The notes: generated by a model from the letters alone, not told the origin. A DNA stretch of 64,000 bases from Oligoflexia bacterium (GCA_016715815.1 JADJXN010000014.1:171767-235766); one strand, 5' to 3'. Shown: positions 5,418-57,723, numbered from the stretch's first letter. Program-made: numbers and translations.

Positions 5418-7335
5418 CATTTTTTTTACTTTCATTTTAGCTTTTTCTTTAAACGCATTAGGCGATATCCGAATCGATGCCACTGTTGACCAAACTGAAG
5501 TGACAACAGAGGACATTATTACTTTAAGCATCACTGTCTCAAGTGATACAGATGTGAGCGATACATCTCCACTTCTTCCAGATCTTAATGGTTTTGAAAT
5601 AATGGGAAGCTTTAACCAGCAACAGATGAGTAGTGTTTTTCAAAATGGAAAGTTTCAAACACATAGAAAAATTATTTATAAATATAAATTAAATCCACAA
5701 CAAACTGGTGAGCTCACTATTGGTAAAGCCAAGCTTGAAGTTAATGGCCAGGTTTTAGAAACAAAACCAATTAAAATTAAAGTACTTGCTGCAGGCTCTG
5801 GGCCAAAAAATCAACAATCACCTCAGTCTCAACAAAAAAGAGGCTATAGCCAACCACAACAACAAGATGATGACAAAAGCGGCTTCCCGCCTGGCTTCCC
5901 AGGTTTTGATGATGAAGACGATCTATTTAACCAACTCTTAAGACGCCGTGGCTTTACTTTAGATAACAAAGGTGGGGTTAAATCAAACCCGCAGCCTGAT
6001 AGAAATGCTTTTTATATAACCGTTGAGGCAAATAAAAAACGAGCCTATGTGGGGGAGCAAGTTATTGCCAAATGGACTCTTTATACTAAAGGAGCCATAC
6101 AATCTTTTGATGCATTAAAGTACCCAGAGCTCAAAGGTTTTTGGAAAGAAGATTTAGAAATTGCCCAAAAACTTAATTTTGAACAAGAAATAATAAACGG
6201 TGTAACCTACAACAAAGCAGTGCTTGTATCTTATGCTCTTTTTCCAATTTCCGCTGGTAAAAAAACAATAGATCAATTTAGAGCCAAAGCTACTGTCATT
6301 GATACCGCTTCTTCAGGGCTTGGTGTTTTTGGCATTGGAAGACCAATGACTTTTGTTAAAGCCAGTGAAGAGCTTCCTATTGATGTAGTGGCTCTTCCAA
6401 CTCAAGGCAGACCTTCTTCTTTTTCAGGTGCCGTTGGAAAATTTAATATTAGTGCTGCATTAAGCTCCCAAGCTGCTAAAGTTAACCAGCCATTAAGTTT
6501 AAAAATAAAATTTTCAGGGCGAGGCAATGTCAAAGCCATCGAGCTTCCGCCATTAAACCTTCCTAACTCGCTTGAAGTTTACGATACTAAAAAAGAAGCC
6601 ATTTATAATAAAACTGGCGATGGCTCTATGGAATTTGAAGTGCTTATTATTCCAAGAAATGCGGGGGATGTTAGTATACCAAGTATTTCTTTAAGCTATT
6701 TTGACCCACAAACAGCTAAATATGTAACCCAATCCACACCTGAGTTTAAGCTTAAAGTTTTACCGGGAGATGGTAATGCCTCATCCGCTGCAAGTGGTTT
6801 GCAATTAGATCCCGCACTTCAAGTGGCAACGGCTAAAGATGTAAGGCCTGTTAAAACAACAGCAGATTTTATTTTGCCACCTAATATTGCAAAAACCATT
6901 TGGGTTTTAATGTTTTTAATTCCCACATTGTGGTTTACCTATAGGGTTAGAAAAATTTTAAATAAAGACAAACTTAATCTAAGACAATTAATTAGAAAAA
7001 AATCTAAACAAAAAATTAAAGAAGCCAAGAAGAAGCTTTCTCTGGGAGACCATAGAAGTTGTGGAGTTGAATTAAATAACGCCATTTTAATGGTGCTTGG
7101 CGAAATTGCAAAAACAGGAGCTGGTGCAAAAACAGTTGAGGAGATTTTAAATTATCTGCCGCAAATTTCAAATGAGCAAAAAGAAAAAATTAATCAGTTT
7201 ATTCAAAAGTGTCACACAATGAGTTTTGCTCCAAAAGAATTAATATCAAAAATTGATCAGAAAATTATTTCAGAGGCGGAAGATTTAGTTGAAGATCTTT
7301 TAAAATACCTAAACACCACGGATGTAAAGTCTTAA
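5401..7335 (+). CDS. batD: BatD-like oxygen-tolerance protein (start placed at GTG 5401 after AGAGGAG RBS; ORF track starts at 5347)
   Basis: Signal peptide IFFTFILAFSLNALG, C-terminal TM helix, operon position after BatA/B/C. Confidence 0.65.
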   Translation: MAKIGNIFFTFILAFSLNALGDIRIDATVDQTEVTTEDIITLSITVSSDTDVSDTSPLLPDLNGFEIMGSFNQQQMSSVFQNGKFQTHRKIIYKYKLNPQQTGELTIGKAKLEVNGQVLETKPIKIKVLAAGSGPKNQQSPQSQQKRGYSQPQQQDDDKSGFPPGFPGFDDEDDLFNQLLRRRGFTLDNKGGVKSNPQPDRNAFYITVEANKKRAYVGEQVIAKWTLYTKGAIQSFDALKYPELKGFWKEDLEIAQKLNFEQEIINGVTYNKAVLVSYALFPISAGKKTIDQFRAKATVIDTASSGLGVFGIGRPMTFVKASEELPIDVVALPTQGRPSSFSGAVGKFNISAALSSQAAKVNQPLSLKIKFSGRGNVKAIELPPLNLPNSLEVYDTKKEAIYNKTGDGSMEFEVLIIPRNAGDVSIPSISLSYFDPQTAKYVTQSTPEFKLKVLPGDGNASSAASGLQLDPALQVATAKDVRPVKTTADFILPPNIAKTIWVLMFLIPTLWFTYRVRKILNKDKLNLRQLIRKKSKQKIKEAKKKLSLGDHRSCGVELNNAILMVLGEIAKTGAGAKTVEEILNYLPQISNEQKEKINQFIQKCHTMSFAPKELISKIDQKIISEAEDLVEDLLKYLNTTDVKS

Positions 7336-50038: not shown

Positions 50039-50758
50039 TTAAAAAGGTTGTGGGAGATCTAAAACTACAAGCACATTAAATTTTCCGTTAAAAGTAATAT
50101 CATAATTAGGGAACTTTCCAGAGGCCAATGTTCTTATCTCTAAAGTTTTATATTTTTCATAATAAGGCTTTATATCAACATTAGTTGTATGAAAGTGAAG
50201 TCTTTGGGTGTCTCTTATAAAATCTTTTTCTATTATGGCGTCTGCAAGAGGGATGTCTTCAAGAACTTCCCCGTTTTTGTCTCTAAAAATTAAAGAGACA
50301 TGAACATCTTTTAAAAAATTTAAATCATTAGGGTTTGAAGGGCCTAAAATATTTAAATTTTTCTTTTCTCTTTCAATCACTTCTAAATAACCGGCAGTAA
50401 GCTGCACAGATTTAACTAATTTTAAAACTTCTTCATCTGTCCAAGTGGAGCCTGGCTTTATAGGAATGTCATTTCTTACTGGTAGTGGTGGGATAAGAGC
50501 CTTTGCCATTGAAAGTGATAAGTTTATAGGCATCTCAAGGATTTCCCCAAAAAGGGGAATCCAACCCAAAAGTGTTCCTGTAAATTTTCTAATAAAGCTT
50601 TTTTGAACTTTAACGGGTTCAACATCACCTTGAATATTTAAACTAATGGCATTGAATTTAAGCTTTTTTGATCCTGCAATAGGGGTAATTTCATTTGTGT
50701 TTTTACACCCAAACGAAAATAAAACTACAAGAGATAAAAAGAGCTTTGCAAAATGCAT
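50039..50758 (-). CDS. hypothetical lipoprotein
   Basis: Lipobox LFSFGC. Confidence 0.55.
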   Translation of the reverse strand: MHFAKLFLSLVVLFSFGCKNTNEITPIAGSKKLKFNAISLNIQGDVEPVKVQKSFIRKFTGTLLGWIPLFGEILEMPINLSLSMAKALIPPLPVRNDIPIKPGSTWTDEEVLKLVKSVQLTAGYLEVIEREKKNLNILGPSNPNDLNFLKDVHVSLIFRDKNGEVLEDIPLADAIIEKDFIRDTQRLHFHTTNVDIKPYYEKYKTLEIRTLASGKFPNYDITFNGKFNVLVVLDLPQPF

Positions 50759-50779
50759 GGTGTCATATAAAAGGTTTTT

Positions 50780-52042
50780 GTGGGGAAAAACAACATTAAA
50801 ATTATTTTTTGTGCACTTATTTTTGCTGCTTTCAACTTAAAGGCAGATACTTCCACTCTTCCCAAAGGGGTGCGTGCTTTTGTTTATAAGCACATGAATG
50901 CGCAAGTGGGCGGTAAGTATGGGGAATCAGGTGCGCTTGGGAGTTATGATTTAAATGAAAAACTAACGCTAGATACTGTTTCTGGGTTATCTAAAAAAGT
51001 TGGTGAAGTTGTTACGCAAATTAAAAATACAAGCCCTGATATTTTTAATCACCTTGAAATTGGAAGTGTAAACATTAATGCAAAAATTGATGTCTCTGCC
51101 AATGCCTTTGCTTTAGCGTATGGAATTACAGATAAAATAATGGTTGCAGTGGCAGCTCCCTACTTAAATGCTAAAGTAAATCTTAAAGGTGGCTATTATG
51201 ATTCGGGCCAATTAAAACAAGCAGCAAATAGTTTAAGCCTCATGGAGGCAGATCCAAAAAATGCGGGGAATAAAGAAAACCTATCCATTATTAGGCAATT
51301 TATTAACCAGCTCCCAACACTAGAGTCCGCAAATCTTCAAGATATTTTAGTAAATTATTATGGTTATAAGCCTTTGGGTACCTGGGAAGGCTCAGGTTTT
51401 GGTGATGCATTATTTTTTATTCAATACCGCTATTTTGAAACTTCCTATTATAAAACAGCACTTAAACTTCAGGCAGATATTCCAACGGGTGGTACAAAAG
51501 ATCCGGATAACCTTGTAGCCATACCAATTACTAATGGCTATTGGGGAACAAGCCTTGAAAGCCTTAATGATTTTTTGCCATTTAGTTATGACAATTTTAT
51601 TATTTCACTTAATTCTAGGTTTAAATACAACTGGCCAACTCAAACAACAGTGAGGCTCGCGCCAAATAAAAGTTTTCCCTTAACTAACCAAAAAGAAACA
51701 CTAATGTGGGAGCCTGGCTCTGTTTGGTACTTGTCTTCTGCTCTGGATTTAAAGACAAATAATAAGTTTTTAGGAGCTTACGCTCAATACACATACTCTT
51801 TAAAGCTAGAAGATATTTATAGGGGTAAAAAAGCAGATTATGATTACAGCATTTTATCTCATAATTCAAACAGCCAAGCCCATGTGATGGAATTGGGGTT
51901 ATATTTTTCAACAGTGGGGTTTTATTTAAGCCAAAAATTTCCAATACCTTTTAAAGGTAGCATTTCTTATAGCCAAGTATTAGCTGGGGTGAACTCTGAG
52001 CTTATTCAGCTATGGAACCTGGGGGTGGAGATGTATTTTTGA
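50780..52042 (+). CDS. putative outer-membrane beta-barrel protein
   Basis: Signal peptide, alternating amphipathic segments, C-terminal aromatic residue (VEMYF). Confidence 0.55.
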   Translation: MGKNNIKIIFCALIFAAFNLKADTSTLPKGVRAFVYKHMNAQVGGKYGESGALGSYDLNEKLTLDTVSGLSKKVGEVVTQIKNTSPDIFNHLEIGSVNINAKIDVSANAFALAYGITDKIMVAVAAPYLNAKVNLKGGYYDSGQLKQAANSLSLMEADPKNAGNKENLSIIRQFINQLPTLESANLQDILVNYYGYKPLGTWEGSGFGDALFFIQYRYFETSYYKTALKLQADIPTGGTKDPDNLVAIPITNGYWGTSLESLNDFLPFSYDNFIISLNSRFKYNWPTQTTVRLAPNKSFPLTNQKETLMWEPGSVWYLSSALDLKTNNKFLGAYAQYTYSLKLEDIYRGKKADYDYSILSHNSNSQAHVMELGLYFSTVGFYLSQKFPIPFKGSISYSQVLAGVNSELIQLWNLGVEMYF

Positions 52043-52160: not shown

Positions 52161-52823
52161 ATGCTAGATATTCAAACTTTATTAATGGAAGAGCTGGTCC
52201 AGTTTTTGGCTAATGGTTGCCAAAATGATGTTTTGCAAAGGCTGAGTAGTGGTTTTTTAGAACTTGGCTTTTCTAAAACAATCATTTTTCTTAAAACATC
52301 ATCTAGTAATGGTGAGTTAAAGCAAGTATTCCCTAATGAATTTGATTTTAAATTAAATTTTAAACCAAATTTAATTGAAAAAGAAAAAGAGCATTATTTT
52401 ATAGAAAAGCCTGCGGCATTTGGTGCAAACCAAGCTTTTGTTGTGATGCCTTTGAGTTGTAAAACCGCTTGCTTTGGCGCTTTAGTACTTCAGGCAGATG
52501 AAAAAACATTACAACGCTGGAGCGGAGATTATAAAAAAATTGGTTATGTATTTTCTTTATTTATGCAAAGTCTTGATTTAATTCAAAAGCAAAATTTAGC
52601 AGAGAATAAAAAGCTAAAAACCAAACTTTGCCTATTACATTTAAGTGATAAGCAAAGCACTATTGTAGAGCTATTATTGAATGGTAGGAGTAATAAGGAA
52701 ATTGCAAAATCTATTAACTTAACAGAGCAGGCAATTAAGTATCATGTTGGTAATATGCTTTCTAAATTCCAGTGTAAGAATAGAAAAGAGCTAAGATCAA
52801 AAATAAATGAGCTAATTGTTTAA
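52161..52823 (+). CDS. LuxR-family HTH transcriptional regulator with N-terminal putative ligand-binding domain
   Basis: C-terminal LuxR/GerE HTH: LSDKQSTIVELLLNGRSNKEIAKSINLTEQAIKYHVGNMLSKF. Confidence 0.7.
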   Translation: MLDIQTLLMEELVQFLANGCQNDVLQRLSSGFLELGFSKTIIFLKTSSSNGELKQVFPNEFDFKLNFKPNLIEKEKEHYFIEKPAAFGANQAFVVMPLSCKTACFGALVLQADEKTLQRWSGDYKKIGYVFSLFMQSLDLIQKQNLAENKKLKTKLCLLHLSDKQSTIVELLLNGRSNKEIAKSINLTEQAIKYHVGNMLSKFQCKNRKELRSKINELIV

Positions 52824-53203
52824 CCATTTCCTTCTTTGAGCTCACGCTCTTGAATTTCAAAGGCTTCAAGTAATTCTGTTGCTGTATTAAAATCAAATTT
52901 CTTAATAACACTTTTATAAAGTTTTTTATTATTCATGTATTGCTCTATAAGAATAAGTATTGAGGTGCGGTGGGGGTCAAAATTAAAAGTCAGTTTTGCT
53001 ACTCTTAAGGTTTCATAAACTAGTTCTTCAGTTTGAGGCTGTTTAGCCGCTTCTCTAATTAAATTAAGGTATTCATCATGTTGCTTTAGTTGTGTAGTTT
53101 GCTTTGTTATTTTTTTCATTTTTAAAATTAATGCAGGTGTAAGATCAACTTGAGCATTTGAAAAGTTAAACAAAAGTAAAATTGCTAAGAATATTTTTGT
53201 CAT
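52820..53203 (-). CDS. small secreted helical protein, translationally coupled to upstream gene
   Basis: Signal peptide; 4-nt start/stop overlap with the 53200..54222 gene. Confidence 0.5.
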   Translation of the reverse strand: MTKIFLAILLLFNFSNAQVDLTPALILKMKKITKQTTQLKQHDEYLNLIREAAKQPQTEELVYETLRVAKLTFNFDPHRTSILILIEQYMNNKKLYKSVIKKFDFNTATELLEAFEIQERELKEGNG

Positions 53204-54222
53204 ATATTTTCCTTATGTACCATAACCCCAATAAGCTCATAGTCATCGGTTTTTCTTTTTCGAGTTGATTGAATAATGGGGTTGGGTGTAACTAAATCAC
53301 TCACGTAGCGAATTTGGTTATTTCTCTCAACTTTAATTTCAGTATGTACCACCTTTGTTGGTCGGCCATTAACATATTTTCTATAGAGCAATATGGCCCC
53401 ATTGGGAGCATCATCTATGTTTTTAATTTTAGGGTAAAGATTGATAAAACCTCTGTTTTCAAAATGCTCTACTTTGGCATAGCTATGCTCACTACTATGC
53501 CAACTATTTTTTTCTTCTTGTGTGACAAACTCGCTGCAAAATAAAACATCCTTAACATGTTTATAGCAGTAACCCTTGGATTTACTTAAATCAGCATAGT
53601 TTGGCTTATGCAGTCTTTTTGCTTCACTACTTAGTGATCTTTCTAAACAAGGAATAATTTTATCTAATTTTTTTGTTTTTTTATGCTTTTGAACTACCTT
53701 TTCTGGTTGAGCTTTTGGGATAGTAGTTTTATTAATTATTTCTGGCTTATTAATATGGCTTTCAATTCTTGCTGTAGCCTCAACAATGGGGGCAGCTTGC
53801 TTTTGCGAAATCACTTGAGTGGATTTTGTGCAATTTGTACAGCTTTCTATGGGTTTGAGCTCTTCAAAATATGTTTGTTTTTGCAAAGTAAGATCAGTGT
53901 ATAGTTTTACAAAATGATTTTGTTTGGCATCTTTAACATTATGGTAAACCCAAGCCACTTTACCTTTTAAATTTCTATTTGGAGATGTGGTTATTTTTAA
54001 TTTAATACCATAGTTGCCAGAGTTTAATTGAACATAATCTAAAATTTCACCCTCAGTCTCTGCAGGCAACGGGCTCTCTTTTAAAACAACACTTGAGTCT
54101 ATAAAATTGGCTTCAGAACGTGCATTAACAGGGTTTAATATTTTAACGTAAGTAGGGCGCACACTTGCTTGTGAAAAATTACTCGCGAAAAAAAATAATA
54201 TTAAAAACACCAAGTGTTTCAC
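53200..54222 (-). CDS. secreted protein with C-terminal Cys/His hydrolase-like region (putative peptidase/amidase)
   Basis: Signal peptide; C-terminal GYCYKHVKDV ... VVHTEIKV resembling Cys-His catalytic arrangement; unverified. Confidence 0.5.
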   Translation of the reverse strand: MKHLVFLILFFFASNFSQASVRPTYVKILNPVNARSEANFIDSSVVLKESPLPAETEGEILDYVQLNSGNYGIKLKITTSPNRNLKGKVAWVYHNVKDAKQNHFVKLYTDLTLQKQTYFEELKPIESCTNCTKSTQVISQKQAAPIVEATARIESHINKPEIINKTTIPKAQPEKVVQKHKKTKKLDKIIPCLERSLSSEAKRLHKPNYADLSKSKGYCYKHVKDVLFCSEFVTQEEKNSWHSSEHSYAKVEHFENRGFINLYPKIKNIDDAPNGAILLYRKYVNGRPTKVVHTEIKVERNNQIRYVSDLVTPNPIIQSTRKRKTDDYELIGVMVHKENI

Positions 54223-54266
54223 AGATTTACTATCGGTTTAAAATAATAAATCTGTGAGTAGTTTAA

Positions 54267-55712
54267 CTACTTAATTACTATGCTTATTGTTTGTGGTTGG
54301 TTTTGCATTACAACTTTGGTCATGCCTACTCGACCATCAGCAAGTTTTGCTGAAACAATATACTCACCTGGGTCTAGTACTTTAAAAAACACACCAAAGT
54401 TATTTGTCCTAAGTGGCATTTCTTTTTTAAGATGCTTTATTTTATCCACTGCAATGGCTGCCACAAGTGGTGCTCTTTGAAGCTGGTTGAGGCCGTCCAC
54501 AACTTGCACCTTTAGCATGTTTTTGCCTGAACGATTCATAAAATATGTCCATGCCTTGCGGTGTTTTAACAAAGTGGGCTCTCTTAAGCTATAAGAAGGG
54601 TGAAAGTCTTGGTTAACTTCAAAAGTGTAGCTGAGTGTTCCGTAAGCTGCGTACATAAAATCCATGGAGCTTCCGTCAACGCCGTAAAGAATTTCCCAGG
54701 GTGCGCCGGGCTTGTAGTTACCACGGCCATCATCTCTAGGGAGAAGGCTTGCTAACTCATTAGCTACTTTTTTAATTAAAGCATTTTCAGAAGTTAAATC
54801 TCCGTAGCAGCCGTATGGGTGTAAAACAAGCTCACTATAAGAATGGTAAGATAAATATGCTGTTGGGCGCACGTGGTCTGTTAATGTATTAAAAGCTTTT
54901 ACTTCTGGTTCACTGGCAGCAGTGGCTCCTCGGTAAGTGTCTGAGCCTTGGCTGCCTGATGAGCCATTGCACTCCCCCCAGCGGTAATTATAATTTCTGT
55001 TTATATCTACCCCATGCACTCCATCAAGAGAGGAGCGAGCGTTTTTTCTCCACATGCTATTTGATGTCCAAACAATGTTTGAGCCATCAGGGTTAAGCAT
55101 GGGTATAACCCAAATATTCCAATTTTTTAAAATTTCTTGTCCCTGCGGGGTTTGTGCATTTTTTAAAACGGTTTCAGCAACATCAAAGACAACCTCAGGG
55201 GTCATGATTTCGCGGGCATGGTGAAGGCCATCAATGATAATGGTTGGTTTTTGAAAATACTCTGCAGAGTTATAATCTAAAGTAGTGGAAACAAGCATGG
55301 CTAAAACCGGGCGGCCCTGGTTTGATTTACCAAGTTCAATCACACGACTTAGTTGTGGATAAGCTTGATTTAGTGCACTTAATTTTGAAGTTAATGTTGT
55401 TGGGTTTAAAAAACGCTGATCAGGAGAAAAATCTGTCCTAACCATTTGGCCATCAAAGCCTTTTTCTTTTAAAAAGCTAAGGCCCTTTGTGGTGGTAATA
55501 ACCTCAATGGTTCTTTGAGCTTCGTTAATACCGGCGATATCAAACTCATACTTATTAAGCATGTTAACAACGTTTCTAACCTGCGTGGCTGTAACGTTAT
55601 TTGGAACCTTAATTTTATATCTTATTTGTGGTTCATTTTTTAACTGAGGCGCAAGTGCCGTTTGAGCGTTAAAGCCTAAAAGTAAAACCAAAAGAATGAT
55701 AATATTTTTCAT
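54267..55712 (-). CDS. secreted M14-family zinc carboxypeptidase
   Basis: Zn-binding motif GLHHAREIMTPE (HxxE) and downstream His region. Confidence 0.8.
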   Translation of the reverse strand: MKNIIILLVLLLGFNAQTALAPQLKNEPQIRYKIKVPNNVTATQVRNVVNMLNKYEFDIAGINEAQRTIEVITTTKGLSFLKEKGFDGQMVRTDFSPDQRFLNPTTLTSKLSALNQAYPQLSRVIELGKSNQGRPVLAMLVSTTLDYNSAEYFQKPTIIIDGLHHAREIMTPEVVFDVAETVLKNAQTPQGQEILKNWNIWVIPMLNPDGSNIVWTSNSMWRKNARSSLDGVHGVDINRNYNYRWGECNGSSGSQGSDTYRGATAASEPEVKAFNTLTDHVRPTAYLSYHSYSELVLHPYGCYGDLTSENALIKKVANELASLLPRDDGRGNYKPGAPWEILYGVDGSSMDFMYAAYGTLSYTFEVNQDFHPSYSLREPTLLKHRKAWTYFMNRSGKNMLKVQVVDGLNQLQRAPLVAAIAVDKIKHLKKEMPLRTNNFGVFFKVLDPGEYIVSAKLADGRVGMTKVVMQNQPQTISIVIK

Positions 55713-55788: not shown

Positions 55789-56235
55789 ATGTGCATGCAG
55801 AGCTTTCGTGTTGAAATAAAAAATCGTTGTTGGGTTGAGGCTAGCTTTAAGCTTGATGAGTATAAAAACGTGCTATCAGTTGATTGGCATGCGCAAGGGA
55901 GTTTTGATTTAATTCAAGAATGTGAGAAATTCTTTAAACTTGCACTTCAAAAGAACCTGGAGAGTTTAAGTGTGGTGGGTGTTAAAACAGCACAACTCAT
56001 GCTTAATGAGCTTTTAGATAAAGCTAAAGGCGTTTATAAGAGTGTAGATGATATAGAAATTTGCCATTGTAGAAAAATAAACAGGTCTGAAATAATAGAT
56101 GCTATTTTATTAGGCGCCCACACGCCTGAGAAGGTCAAAAAATGGACCACCGCAAGTTCGGGTTGCGGAACTTGCCGCTCTGATGTAGATAAGCTCATAA
56201 ATGAGCTTATCAAAAGAGATGTTAGCAAAAGTTAA
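55789..56235 (+). CDS. BFD-like [2Fe-2S]-binding domain protein
   Basis: CHCRKINRSEI ... SGCGTCR four-Cys BFD pattern. Confidence 0.55.
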   Translation: MCMQSFRVEIKNRCWVEASFKLDEYKNVLSVDWHAQGSFDLIQECEKFFKLALQKNLESLSVVGVKTAQLMLNELLDKAKGVYKSVDDIEICHCRKINRSEIIDAILLGAHTPEKVKKWTTASSGCGTCRSDVDKLINELIKRDVSKS

Positions 56236-56515
56236 CGAAATTATTGAATCAGACATTCGCCCCATGCTTTTAGGCGATGGTGGGGATATCCAAGTTATAG
56301 ATTTACGTGATGACGGCTTTTTAGAACTACGTGTGTCTGGCCAATGTGTGCACTGTGCTTCTTTACCACTTACCATGACCTTTGCTATTGAGGAGCGCTT
56401 AAAGACAGCATTTCCTGAAATAAAAGGTGTGGTGCAGTTAAAAGATTTGGATGATGAAGGTGAGCTTGTTGGTGAGCAGGCATTGGACGATGTTGTGGGG
56501 AAGACGTGTCATTAA
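56201..56515 (+). CDS. Nfu/NifU C-terminal-domain Fe-S scaffold protein (start may be ATG 56219)
   Basis: LLGDGGDIQVIDL and CVHCAS (CxxC) Nfu motifs. Confidence 0.75.
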   Translation: MSLSKEMLAKVNEIIESDIRPMLLGDGGDIQVIDLRDDGFLELRVSGQCVHCASLPLTMTFAIEERLKTAFPEIKGVVQLKDLDDEGELVGEQALDDVVGKTCH

Positions 56516-56844: not shown

Positions 56845-57165
56845 ATGCAAAAAGAATTTTTAGAACTTCACCAAAAAGCCATCAACATTGCCCAAAGCTT
56901 TCACAAAGCAGAATCAGATCTGATTGATATACTTCAAAAAATAGATCAACAAAAAATATTTTTAAAACTAGGTTTTGCCAGCCTTTTTGACTATGCGTTG
57001 AAAGCGTTAAAGCTCTCAGAAGCTAATAGTTCAAACTTTATAACTGTTGCCAGAAAATCAAAAACAATCCCTGAGCTAAAAGAAGCTATTAAGGAAGGTA
57101 GACTTAGTGTCTCAAAGGCAAGAAAGATAACTCCTGTGTTAACCCCAGAAAACAAAGACGTTTAG
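56845..57165 (+). CDS. DUF222-like N-terminal segment of HNH endonuclease (ends at in-frame TAG)
   Basis: Helical segment resembling DUF222; same frame as the following HNH ORF, separated by a single TAG. Confidence 0.5.
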   Translation: MQKEFLELHQKAINIAQSFHKAESDLIDILQKIDQQKIFLKLGFASLFDYALKALKLSEANSSNFITVARKSKTIPELKEAIKEGRLSVSKARKITPVLTPENKDV

Positions 57166-57171
57166 TTAAAT

Positions 57172-57723
57172 ATGGCTGAGGTGTTGCCAAAGGCAAAGCT
57201 AGAAAAGGAGATTGCCAAGGTTTTACCTGAAAAGGCGGTTCAAGAAAGAACAAGCTATGTCAGCCCTGAAAGAATCAAACTTACAGTTGGCTTATCTGAA
57301 AGAGCCCATGAGCTACTTAAAAGGGTTCAAGATTTGGAGTGTCAAAGAAGAAGAGCCTCTATTAATTTTGAGCAAACAATTGAGGCGGCTTTGGAGTTAT
57401 ACATAAAAAAGCTTGATCCAGTGGAGAAAGCAAAAGCACGGTTTGAATCTGAAGTTAAAACCACTGACGCGGCTGCTTCTGTCCCGGGACACATAGTGGG
57501 TTTGTATGGGTTTACAAGGGTGAGGTTGCCTCAAAGGTTAAAACACCAAATTTTTCTAAGAGACAAGGGGGAGTGTCAGCATAGAGATCAAAGTGGAAAT
57601 AAGTGCCACAACTCTAGATGGACTGAGGTTCATCACAAAACTCCGGTGAGCCATGGTGGGCAAAATGAATTAAATAACCTCACTACACTTTGTTTCGGGC
57701 ACCATAAACTTATGCATTTATAA
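57172..57723 (+). CDS. HNH endonuclease domain protein
   Basis: HNH motif CQHRDQSGNKCHN ... EVHHKTPVSHGGQNELNNLTTLCFGHH. Confidence 0.75.
   Translation: MAEVLPKAKLEKEIAKVLPEKAVQERTSYVSPERIKLTVGLSERAHELLKRVQDLECQRRRASINFEQTIEAALELYIKKLDPVEKAKARFESEVKTTDAAASVPGHIVGLYGFTRVRLPQRLKHQIFLRDKGECQHRDQSGNKCHNSRWTEVHHKTPVSHGGQNELNNLTTLCFGHHKLMHL

Follow-up and report, generated by a model that had tools for sequence, protein, structure and literature searches.

We analysed a 64,000-nucleotide (nt) stretch of an Oligoflexia bacterium metagenome-assembled genome (MAG; GCA_016715815.1, JADJXN010000014.1:171767-235766), hereafter the window, whose minus strand carries three consecutive open reading frames (ORFs; Table 1). 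These encode an M14 carboxypeptidase, a 340-amino-acid (aa) secreted protein whose C-terminal domain contains a conserved Cys and His, and a 127-aa secreted protein that we refer to as the partner. The last two genes form a conserved two-gene cassette consisting of a putative cell wall hydrolase and its partner. Direct reading of the sequence shows that the ATG of the 127-aa ORF overlaps the TGA of the 340-aa ORF as ATGA. Signal-peptide-like N-termini with a K/H n-region, a hydrophobic core and an A-x-A-type cleavage site (SQA before S, SNA before Q and ALA before P) are present on all three proteins and were called by eye from the sequence. In NCBI records of this MAG, on a contig of 332 kb, the 340-aa ORF appears as a 336-aa hypothetical protein (IPM57_12085) and the 127-aa protein is likewise hypothetical (IPM57_12080). 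The G+C content of the three-gene region (29-44%) is similar to that of its surroundings.

Table 1. Features of the cassette and the adjacent M14 gene, with positions counted from the first letter of the window.
Feature	Position	Strand	Details
Gene for 340-aa secreted two-domain protein	53200..54222	-	GTG start; signal peptide, SH3b-like domain, Cys-x-x-Cys linker, Tae3-like Cys/His domain
Signal-peptide-like N-terminus, aa 1-20	54163..54222	-	MKHLVFLILFFFASNFSQA followed by S; read from the sequence; helix modelled at residues 5-12
N-terminal beta-rich SH3b-like domain, aa ~22-110	53893..54159	-	Probable peptidoglycan-binding module
Cys128-x-x-Cys131 motif in linker	53830..53841	-	Preceded by T-E-A/G in most relatives
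C-terminal predicted papain-like domain (NlpC/P60-CHAP superfamily, Tae3-like), aa ~175-340	53203..53700	-	
Cys219 codon, predicted nucleophile	53566..53568	-	Invariant (78/78); first residue of helix 219-229
His293-Thr-Glu295 codons, consensus G-H-x-E-I-K	53338..53346	-	In strand 287-300; His293 predicted general base
Asp309 codon (Y-V-S-D), candidate third polar residue	53296..53298	-	Conserved in 89-94%; follows strand 303-307
Gene for 127-aa secreted, putatively helical partner	52820..53203	-	ATGA overlap with 340-aa ORF at 53200-53203
Partner Asp76 codon, motif D-P-x-x	52976-52978	-	Invariant in partner alignment A3
Partner C-terminal Gly125-Asn126-Gly127 codons	52823..52831	-	Gly125 and Gly127 conserved in at least 90% (A3)
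M14 carboxypeptidase gene	54267..55712	-	481 aa; Pfam PF00246
15-bp RNA hairpin between M14 and hydrolase genes	54220..54256	-	3' arm ends with GTG start of 340-aa gene

The 340-aa protein has no sequence match in Pfam, NCBIfam, PADLOC or PDB, and its family became visible only because an exhaustive phmmer search was used. This search returned 61 relatives, mostly with 25-35% identity and none above 42%. When the 340-aa and 127-aa proteins were used as queries in word-indexed searches, each retrieved nothing but itself, and a profile search with an alignment of 37 sequences of the 340-aa family (A1) returned two proteins only. Members of A1 share a plan consisting of a signal peptide, a beta-rich N-terminal domain, a T-E-A...C-x-x-C linker and a C-terminal domain with the motifs C-Y-R-Y-V-K, D-A-P-K-G-A-V-L-V-Y, G-H-I-E-I-K-T and Y-V-S-D-F. 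The family is nearly confined to the predatory phylum Bdellovibrionota, and a literature search found no paper on this Bdellovibrio family.

A scan of one genome per species, using a seven-sequence sub-alignment (A2) of A1, identified 45 loci in Bdellovibrio (including cultured B. bacteriovorus), other Bdellovibrionales, Halobacteriovorax and Bacteriovoracaceae, plus nine sphingomonads. With a hidden Markov model of the partner, a match immediately follows the hydrolase gene in 36 of the 39 Bdellovibrionota loci with a readable downstream region, and this pairing spans Bdellovibrio, Halobacteriovorax and Oligoflexia. The three loci that lack the partner (L036-L038) share only the C-terminal domain with the family. 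Among 38 fetched loci, the distance from the hydrolase stop to the partner ranges from -44 to +13 nt, with a 4-nt overlap in 15. Two cassette loci are present in strain Bd16. Five distant metagenomic loci also encode a 117-161-aa signal-peptide protein directly downstream of the hydrolase, and these five proteins and the 127-aa protein of the window have in common a D-P-(S/H/T)-x motif and a C-terminal G-N-G. The pairing of hydrolase and partner is well beyond chance, and the conserved unit is the two-gene cassette.

Partner and hydrolase divergence are correlated (Spearman 0.68-0.76, compared with 0.75 between the two hydrolase domains); this mirror-tree-style comparison shows co-inheritance and cannot tell which domain the partner contacts. 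Across the family, the partner is the fastest evolving element, with a mean pairwise identity of 29% versus 39% and 48% for the enzyme domains. Between the window and its relative L001, partner identity is 58% and enzyme identity 42%.

We next turn to the predicted structure of the 340-aa protein. An AlphaFold model built on the 37 remote homologues of A1 has a pLDDT (predicted local distance difference test) score of 80.9 and two domains, whereas single-sequence prediction was unusable (pLDDT 42). The N-terminal domain of the model resembles SH3b wall-binding domains in its SH3-like beta-barrel fold, though it is unmatched by the Pfam SH3_3, SH3_4 and SH3_5 models, and it is probably a peptidoglycan-binding module. 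The C-terminal domain is modelled as an alpha+beta papain-like fold similar in structure to Tae3. Transglutaminase, the deamidase TecA and pairs of papain-like toxin and immunity protein are among the weak fold matches. Across A1, Cys131 of the linker is invariant and Cys128 nearly so. The linker is poorly modelled (mean pLDDT 48-57 over residues 111-130), and its Cys-x-x-Cys motif may form a disulfide loop, bind a metal or mark a point of processing.

Within the modelled C-terminal domain, a helix begins at Cys219 and a strand contains His293, which accords with a papain-like arrangement. Every one of the 78 aligned family members has Cys219, and its retention in members that lack the CxxC linker speaks against a residue that serves only in a structural disulfide. 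Together with Lys224, Pro273 and Gly275, Cys219 makes up a set of residues that are invariant or near-invariant across the 78 sequences. His293 and Glu295 are each conserved in 100% of a 62-member subclade that holds the window protein. Candidates for a third polar residue are Glu295, on the strength of this conservation in the His subclade, and Asp309 (89-94%), which may serve in this capacity. Much of what the first-pass annotation of this DNA had described is upheld by these results: three same-strand genes are present at the coordinates it gave, with the 4-nt overlap; the secreted 340-aa protein has a C-terminal Cys/His pair, with an invariant Cys219 and an apparently papain-like arrangement in the model; and the small gene that it coupled to the 340-aa gene proves to be its partner across the phylum.

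Domain combinations found elsewhere provide a connection to the cell wall. The N-terminal domain alone is shared by 20 proteins, six of which contain an SLT lytic transglycosylase domain, while the Pfam NlpC/P60 model matches one at threshold level and another weakly (the SLT and NlpC/P60 fusions of the SH3b-like module are P0033, P0036, P0040, P0042, P0052 and P0062; P0051 and P0048). The C-terminal domain lies within 540-580-aa proteins in nine Sphingomonas/Novosphingobium genomes (L042-L050), and the L042 protein, the sole sphingomonad member scanned against Pfam, contains two LysM repeats. Both domains thus accompany wall-binding or wall-cleaving modules, which links the family to the cell wall. 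We infer that the 340-aa protein is catalytically active and that peptidoglycan, a target for which the support is good, is its substrate. The sphingomonad loci L042-L050 lack the partner family. In the two that were inspected (L042 and L046), the next gene after the Cys/His gene encodes a lipoprotein-like product of ~300 aa that has a lipobox and may be a different cognate protein in sphingomonads.

The 127-aa protein founds a new family. In an alignment of partner sequences (A3), an Asp (Asp76 of the window protein) is invariant and a terminal Gly-x-Gly is near-invariant. In PDB, the only matches to the partner-family profile are designed helical repeats and coiled proteins, and the designed repeats among them suggest that the partner is probably helical. 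Partner motifs follow the hydrolase subclades: DPSEAA...EGNG accompanies enzymes with His293 and Glu295, and DPTQYA...SGNG accompanies an Asp/Gln subclade that is discussed below. Charge complementarity between a basic enzyme and an acidic partner is seen in most pairs and in the family median. A match of the 127-aa protein to DUF4476 (E-value 0.0095) fails the cutoff and is present in one of 35 family members, and we attribute it to chance. A 146-aa member of the partner family in B. bacteriovorus strain kdesi (UXR65184.1; L025:4461-4901) is labelled 'phosphoenolpyruvate carboxylase' in GenBank and UniRef, which is evidently a misannotation.

We compared the cassette with described systems. 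The Tae3-Tai3 pair of the Ralstonia pickettii type VI secretion system (T6SS; PDB 4HZ9/4HZB) consists, much as is proposed for the cassette, of a small papain-like Cys/His peptidoglycan amidase and an adjacent periplasmic neutraliser. Tai3, encoded in the same operon as Tae3, is periplasmic and neutralises the enzyme by inserting a loop into its active-site cleft (PMC6099711). The window protein differs in having a putative Sec signal peptide, an SH3b-like domain and a CxxC linker instead of T6SS delivery, and the window partner is unrelated to Tai3 in sequence. The 37-member family profile retrieves no PDB chain, Tae3 included, at an E-value of 10 or below. No T6SS component is present among the nine neighbouring window proteins scanned, and B. 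bacteriovorus, which carries the 340-aa family, is reported to lack a T6SS (PMC7174725).

A second precedent comes from within the phylum. Bd3460 has a signal peptide, is encoded just downstream of the secreted DD-endopeptidase Bd3459 and remains in the B. bacteriovorus periplasm, where it blocks the active site of this enzyme (PMC4686830). The Bd3459/Bd0816-Bd3460 system and the cassette have in common their phylum, logic and gene order, in which a secreted wall hydrolase is followed by a small signal-peptide protein. Their folds differ: a PBP4-type serine endopeptidase and an ankyrin-repeat inhibitor in the former, versus a predicted papain-like Cys/His enzyme and a short, putatively helical protein, for which inhibition is only proposed, in the window.

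Other comparisons are with papain-like enzymes more broadly. NlpC/P60 and CHAP hydrolases that carry SH3b domains, considered together with their protein inhibitors or adaptors (phage endolysins, LytE-IseA and MepS-NlpI), have in common with the modelled protein the superfamily fold, a Cys at a helix N-terminus, a His on a strand and the SH3b-type combination. The window protein nevertheless fails the Pfam NLPC_P60, CHAP and SH3 models, has motifs of its own (CYRYVK, DAPKGAVLVY and GHxEIKT) and is paired with a new partner family. Tox-PL1 (PF15644), a toxin domain of polymorphic toxin systems, is a further papain-like fold with a dedicated immunity family, and B. bacteriovorus homologues bear the 'Tox-PL' label in UniRef, a label that current Pfam does not reproduce. 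Tox-PL1 is characterized by an NC-H-DxQ signature, occurs in type VII secretion system, Rhs or MuF architectures and is associated with Imm35, a proposed peptidase inhibitor (PMC3482391); the window family instead has a C...HxE...SD signature and a signal peptide followed by an SH3b-like domain. By sequence, the cassette belongs to none of the described families, and it resembles Tae/Tai or Bd3459/Bd3460 in its logic.

We consider with moderate confidence that the cassette encodes a wall hydrolase and a cognate periplasmic inhibitor or self-protection partner. According to this proposal, the first gene would encode a Sec-exported peptidoglycan hydrolase held on the wall by its SH3b-like domain, whose compact papain-like Cys219/His293 domain would cut the stem peptide or the cross-link at a peptide or amide bond. 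The second gene would encode a translationally coupled, Sec-exported and probably helical protein made alongside the enzyme, and co-translation and co-export would bring the two together in the producer's periplasm. The partner would most likely bind the enzyme there and protect the producer's own wall, and the enzyme would act once released or exported. The upstream M14 carboxypeptidase would be a separate secreted enzyme, adjacent by chance of lineage. It is from the gene arrangement that we infer an inhibitor or immunity role: the partner gene is adjacent to the hydrolase gene and overlaps it by 4 nt, and its product has a signal-peptide-like N-terminus, as in the immunity/inhibitor class. 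The Tae3/Tai3 and Bd3459/Bd3460 precedents support this reading of the partner, and physical binding of partner to enzyme would follow the same pattern.

Several observations weigh against this proposal. On the enzyme side, Pfam and NCBIfam matches are absent not only for the 340-aa protein but also for 36 relatives and the B. bacteriovorus members; NlpC/P60, CHAP and Tae sequence models match none of the family; and a Foldseek search of the 340-aa model against PDB returned nothing significant. On the partner side, the family has no relative in Pfam or PDB and no detectable relative among known immunity proteins, Tai3 included, and the window pair lacks charge complementarity, with a partner isoelectric point of 8.9. 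Another observation concerns the remaining 16 of the 78 aligned enzymes, all of Bdellovibrio type, in which His293 and Glu295 are jointly replaced by Asp and Gln (motif G-D-x-Q-I-K-T-D) and which retain both Cys219 and the downstream partner. These members could be pseudo-enzymes or have an altered chemistry. Should they prove inactive, blocking catalysis cannot be the only task of the partner, and its retention by these members would be odd for a protein that served purely as an inhibitor of catalysis. Members of the Asp/Gln subclade are L007, L010, L017, L023-L025, L027-L029, L032-L034, P0007, P0022, P0023 and P0026, and B. bacteriovorus genomes carry both His/Glu and Asp/Gln types.

The phylum-wide distribution of the cassette counts as a further difficulty, in that it could indicate a housekeeping system rather than a weapon. 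The same enzyme and inhibitor mechanism would then serve remodelling of the bacterium's own wall, growth or division, an alternative that we take seriously while holding it less likely than not. It accords with the presence of the cassette in all major Bdellovibrionota lineages, with the occurrence of more than one copy per genome (as in strain Bd16) and with its chromosomal, vertically inherited character. The near-restriction of the family to a predatory phylum is harder to accommodate, as is the identity of its nearest fold, which is that of an interbacterial toxin.

An alternative of a different kind retains the wall hydrolase and assigns the partner to its folding, secretion or localisation, as a periplasmic chaperone, export or targeting adaptor, activator or regulator. 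The pairing is obligate and vertically inherited, and this role would account for the retention of the partner in an Asp/Gln subclade that lacks the predicted catalytic His and for the absence of charge complementarity in the window pair. The higher conservation of the partner than of the enzyme between the window and L001 also fits, since it is unusual for a fast-evolving immunity protein. Family-wide, however, both enzyme domains evolve more slowly than the partner, and the partner matched no chaperone-like or adaptor family. Where small signal-peptide proteins encoded downstream of secreted wall hydrolases, with translational coupling, have been documented (Tai proteins and Bd3460), they are inhibitors. 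We view a non-inhibitory partner as unlikely.

We also considered whether the Cys/His domain might act on proteins rather than on peptidoglycan, as a papain-fold protease, deamidase or transglutaminase of the 'Tox-PL' kind, or might process its own partner, for example at Gly-Asn-Gly. The UniRef name of the B. bacteriovorus homologues ('Tox-PL domain-containing protein') and the weak fold matches to papain-like toxin/immunity pairs, TecA and transglutaminase would be consistent with such an activity, which would also give a reason for the invariant C-terminal tripeptide of the partner. We nonetheless judge it improbable: current Pfam yields neither Tox-PL nor any other match, the C...H-x-E...S-D signature of the family departs from the Tox-PL1 signature NC-H-DxQ (PMC3482391), and the cell wall is indicated both by the best fold matches and by every fusion partner (SH3b-like, LysM and SLT).

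The M14 gene upstream of the cassette encodes a member of a well-described enzyme class. Its product matches Pfam Peptidase_M14 (PF00246) with an E-value of 2.7e-59 and a score of 201.6 bits versus a cutoff of 21.6, and its closest solved relatives are carboxypeptidase T (E-value 3.7e-35), followed by carboxypeptidases A and B. The sequences HHARE, YHSYSEL and YTFEV align with the zinc (HxxE and second His) and catalytic Glu motifs of carboxypeptidase T, and the window protein differs from carboxypeptidases T, A and B in having an extra N-terminal pro-like segment and a ~100-aa C-terminal extension. Its score against the model of the murein-peptide amidase MpaA is 16.7 bits, with a cutoff of 157. 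The likeness to carboxypeptidases T, A and B and the low MpaA score thus point to a general M14A-like secreted carboxypeptidase, rather than to MpaA or M14C.

The M14 gene adjoins the cassette only in the window and in L001-L004 (one close relative). The L001 neighbourhood is syntenic throughout, including NifU, BFD, HNH and DHH genes, and the M14 adjacency there therefore reflects relatedness, not selection. Restriction of the adjacency to the window and one relative means that the conserved unit comprises two genes, not three. While the M14 assignment made in the first-pass annotation is confirmed by the Pfam match and aligned motifs, its grouping of all three genes into one module did not hold up, as the M14 gene is absent at ~45 other loci.

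The hairpin that lies between the M14 and hydrolase genes starts 10 nt past the M14 stop, and the 91-nt stretch that contains it has a minimum free energy of -23.8 kcal/mol (z -4.4). L001 contains an equivalent 17-bp hairpin (about 5974-6014; z -6.1) with an A-U to G-C compensatory change, and start-overlapping stems are found in only a few other loci (L041, L027 and L037). The hairpin, confined to the close relative and these few loci, is therefore not a feature of the family. It may block access to the start codon, tie translation to that of M14 or serve as an attenuator. A three-gene module, in which the M14 enzyme would trim stem peptides after endopeptidase cleavage, is very improbable: the M14 and hydrolase genes lie on the same strand 44 nt apart with no clear terminator, and the hairpin that includes the hydrolase start codon in the window and L001 could couple hydrolase translation to M14, but M14 is absent beside the cassette at all other loci, adjacency in L001 is explained by synteny of the full neighbourhood, and the enzyme is nearest to carboxypeptidases T, A and B while scoring far below the MpaA cutoff.

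A LuxR/GerE-type regulator gene on the plus strand (52161-52823) runs towards the 127-aa gene and extends over its stop. The two genes just past it (50039-52042), neither of which has a Pfam match, encode a 239-aa lipoprotein-like protein with the lipobox FSFGC and a 420-aa signal-peptide protein that ends in ...VEMYF, a typical outer-membrane beta-barrel terminus. Divergent from the M14 gene, a BFD-like [2Fe-2S] gene and a NifU-like gene lie on the plus strand (55789-56515) with an overlap of 35 nt, and this gene pair also flanks the cassette in L001. Further along the plus strand (56845-57723), an HNH-motif gene is broken by an in-frame TAG (57163-57165) into ORFs of 106 and 183 aa. Its counterpart in L001 is intact, at 300 aa, and occupies the same position, and the split gene is likely a pseudogene or an assembly error. 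PADLOC gave no defence-system match.

A more elaborate version of the inhibitor proposal, which we put forward as speculation and regard as distinctly unlikely in its entirety, would extend it in several directions. The cassette would be a Sec-dependent, T6SS-independent counterpart of Tae/Tai that predatory Bdellovibrionota direct against prey walls. Its partner would represent a new inhibitor class that plugs the Cys/His cleft with an invariant, free C-terminal Gly-Asn-Gly mimicking the D-amino-acid end of the stem peptide, and the Asp/Gln paralogues would be non-hydrolytic wall binders that need the partner. The whole would constitute a second self-protection system, structurally unrelated to Bd3459/Bd3460.

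The cassette bears on the question of how predatory bacteria pass wall-degrading enzymes through their own periplasm without self-lysis. Bd3459/Bd3460 is the only self-protection pair found in the literature that we searched, and the cassette provides a second candidate, present across the phylum. The nearest structural relative of the enzyme is a type VI toxin, yet the lineage is without a type VI system. Homologues are present in cultured, tractable B. bacteriovorus strains, among them those at loci L014, L019 and L025, which makes the hypothesis directly checkable. Even a partner that proved to have no inhibitory role would, through its obligate pairing, point to an accessory function for a wall enzyme. 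If the proposal is true, the cassette would represent a new peptidoglycan hydrolase family and a new inhibitor family, and would provide an instance of one toxin fold being delivered by different secretion routes.

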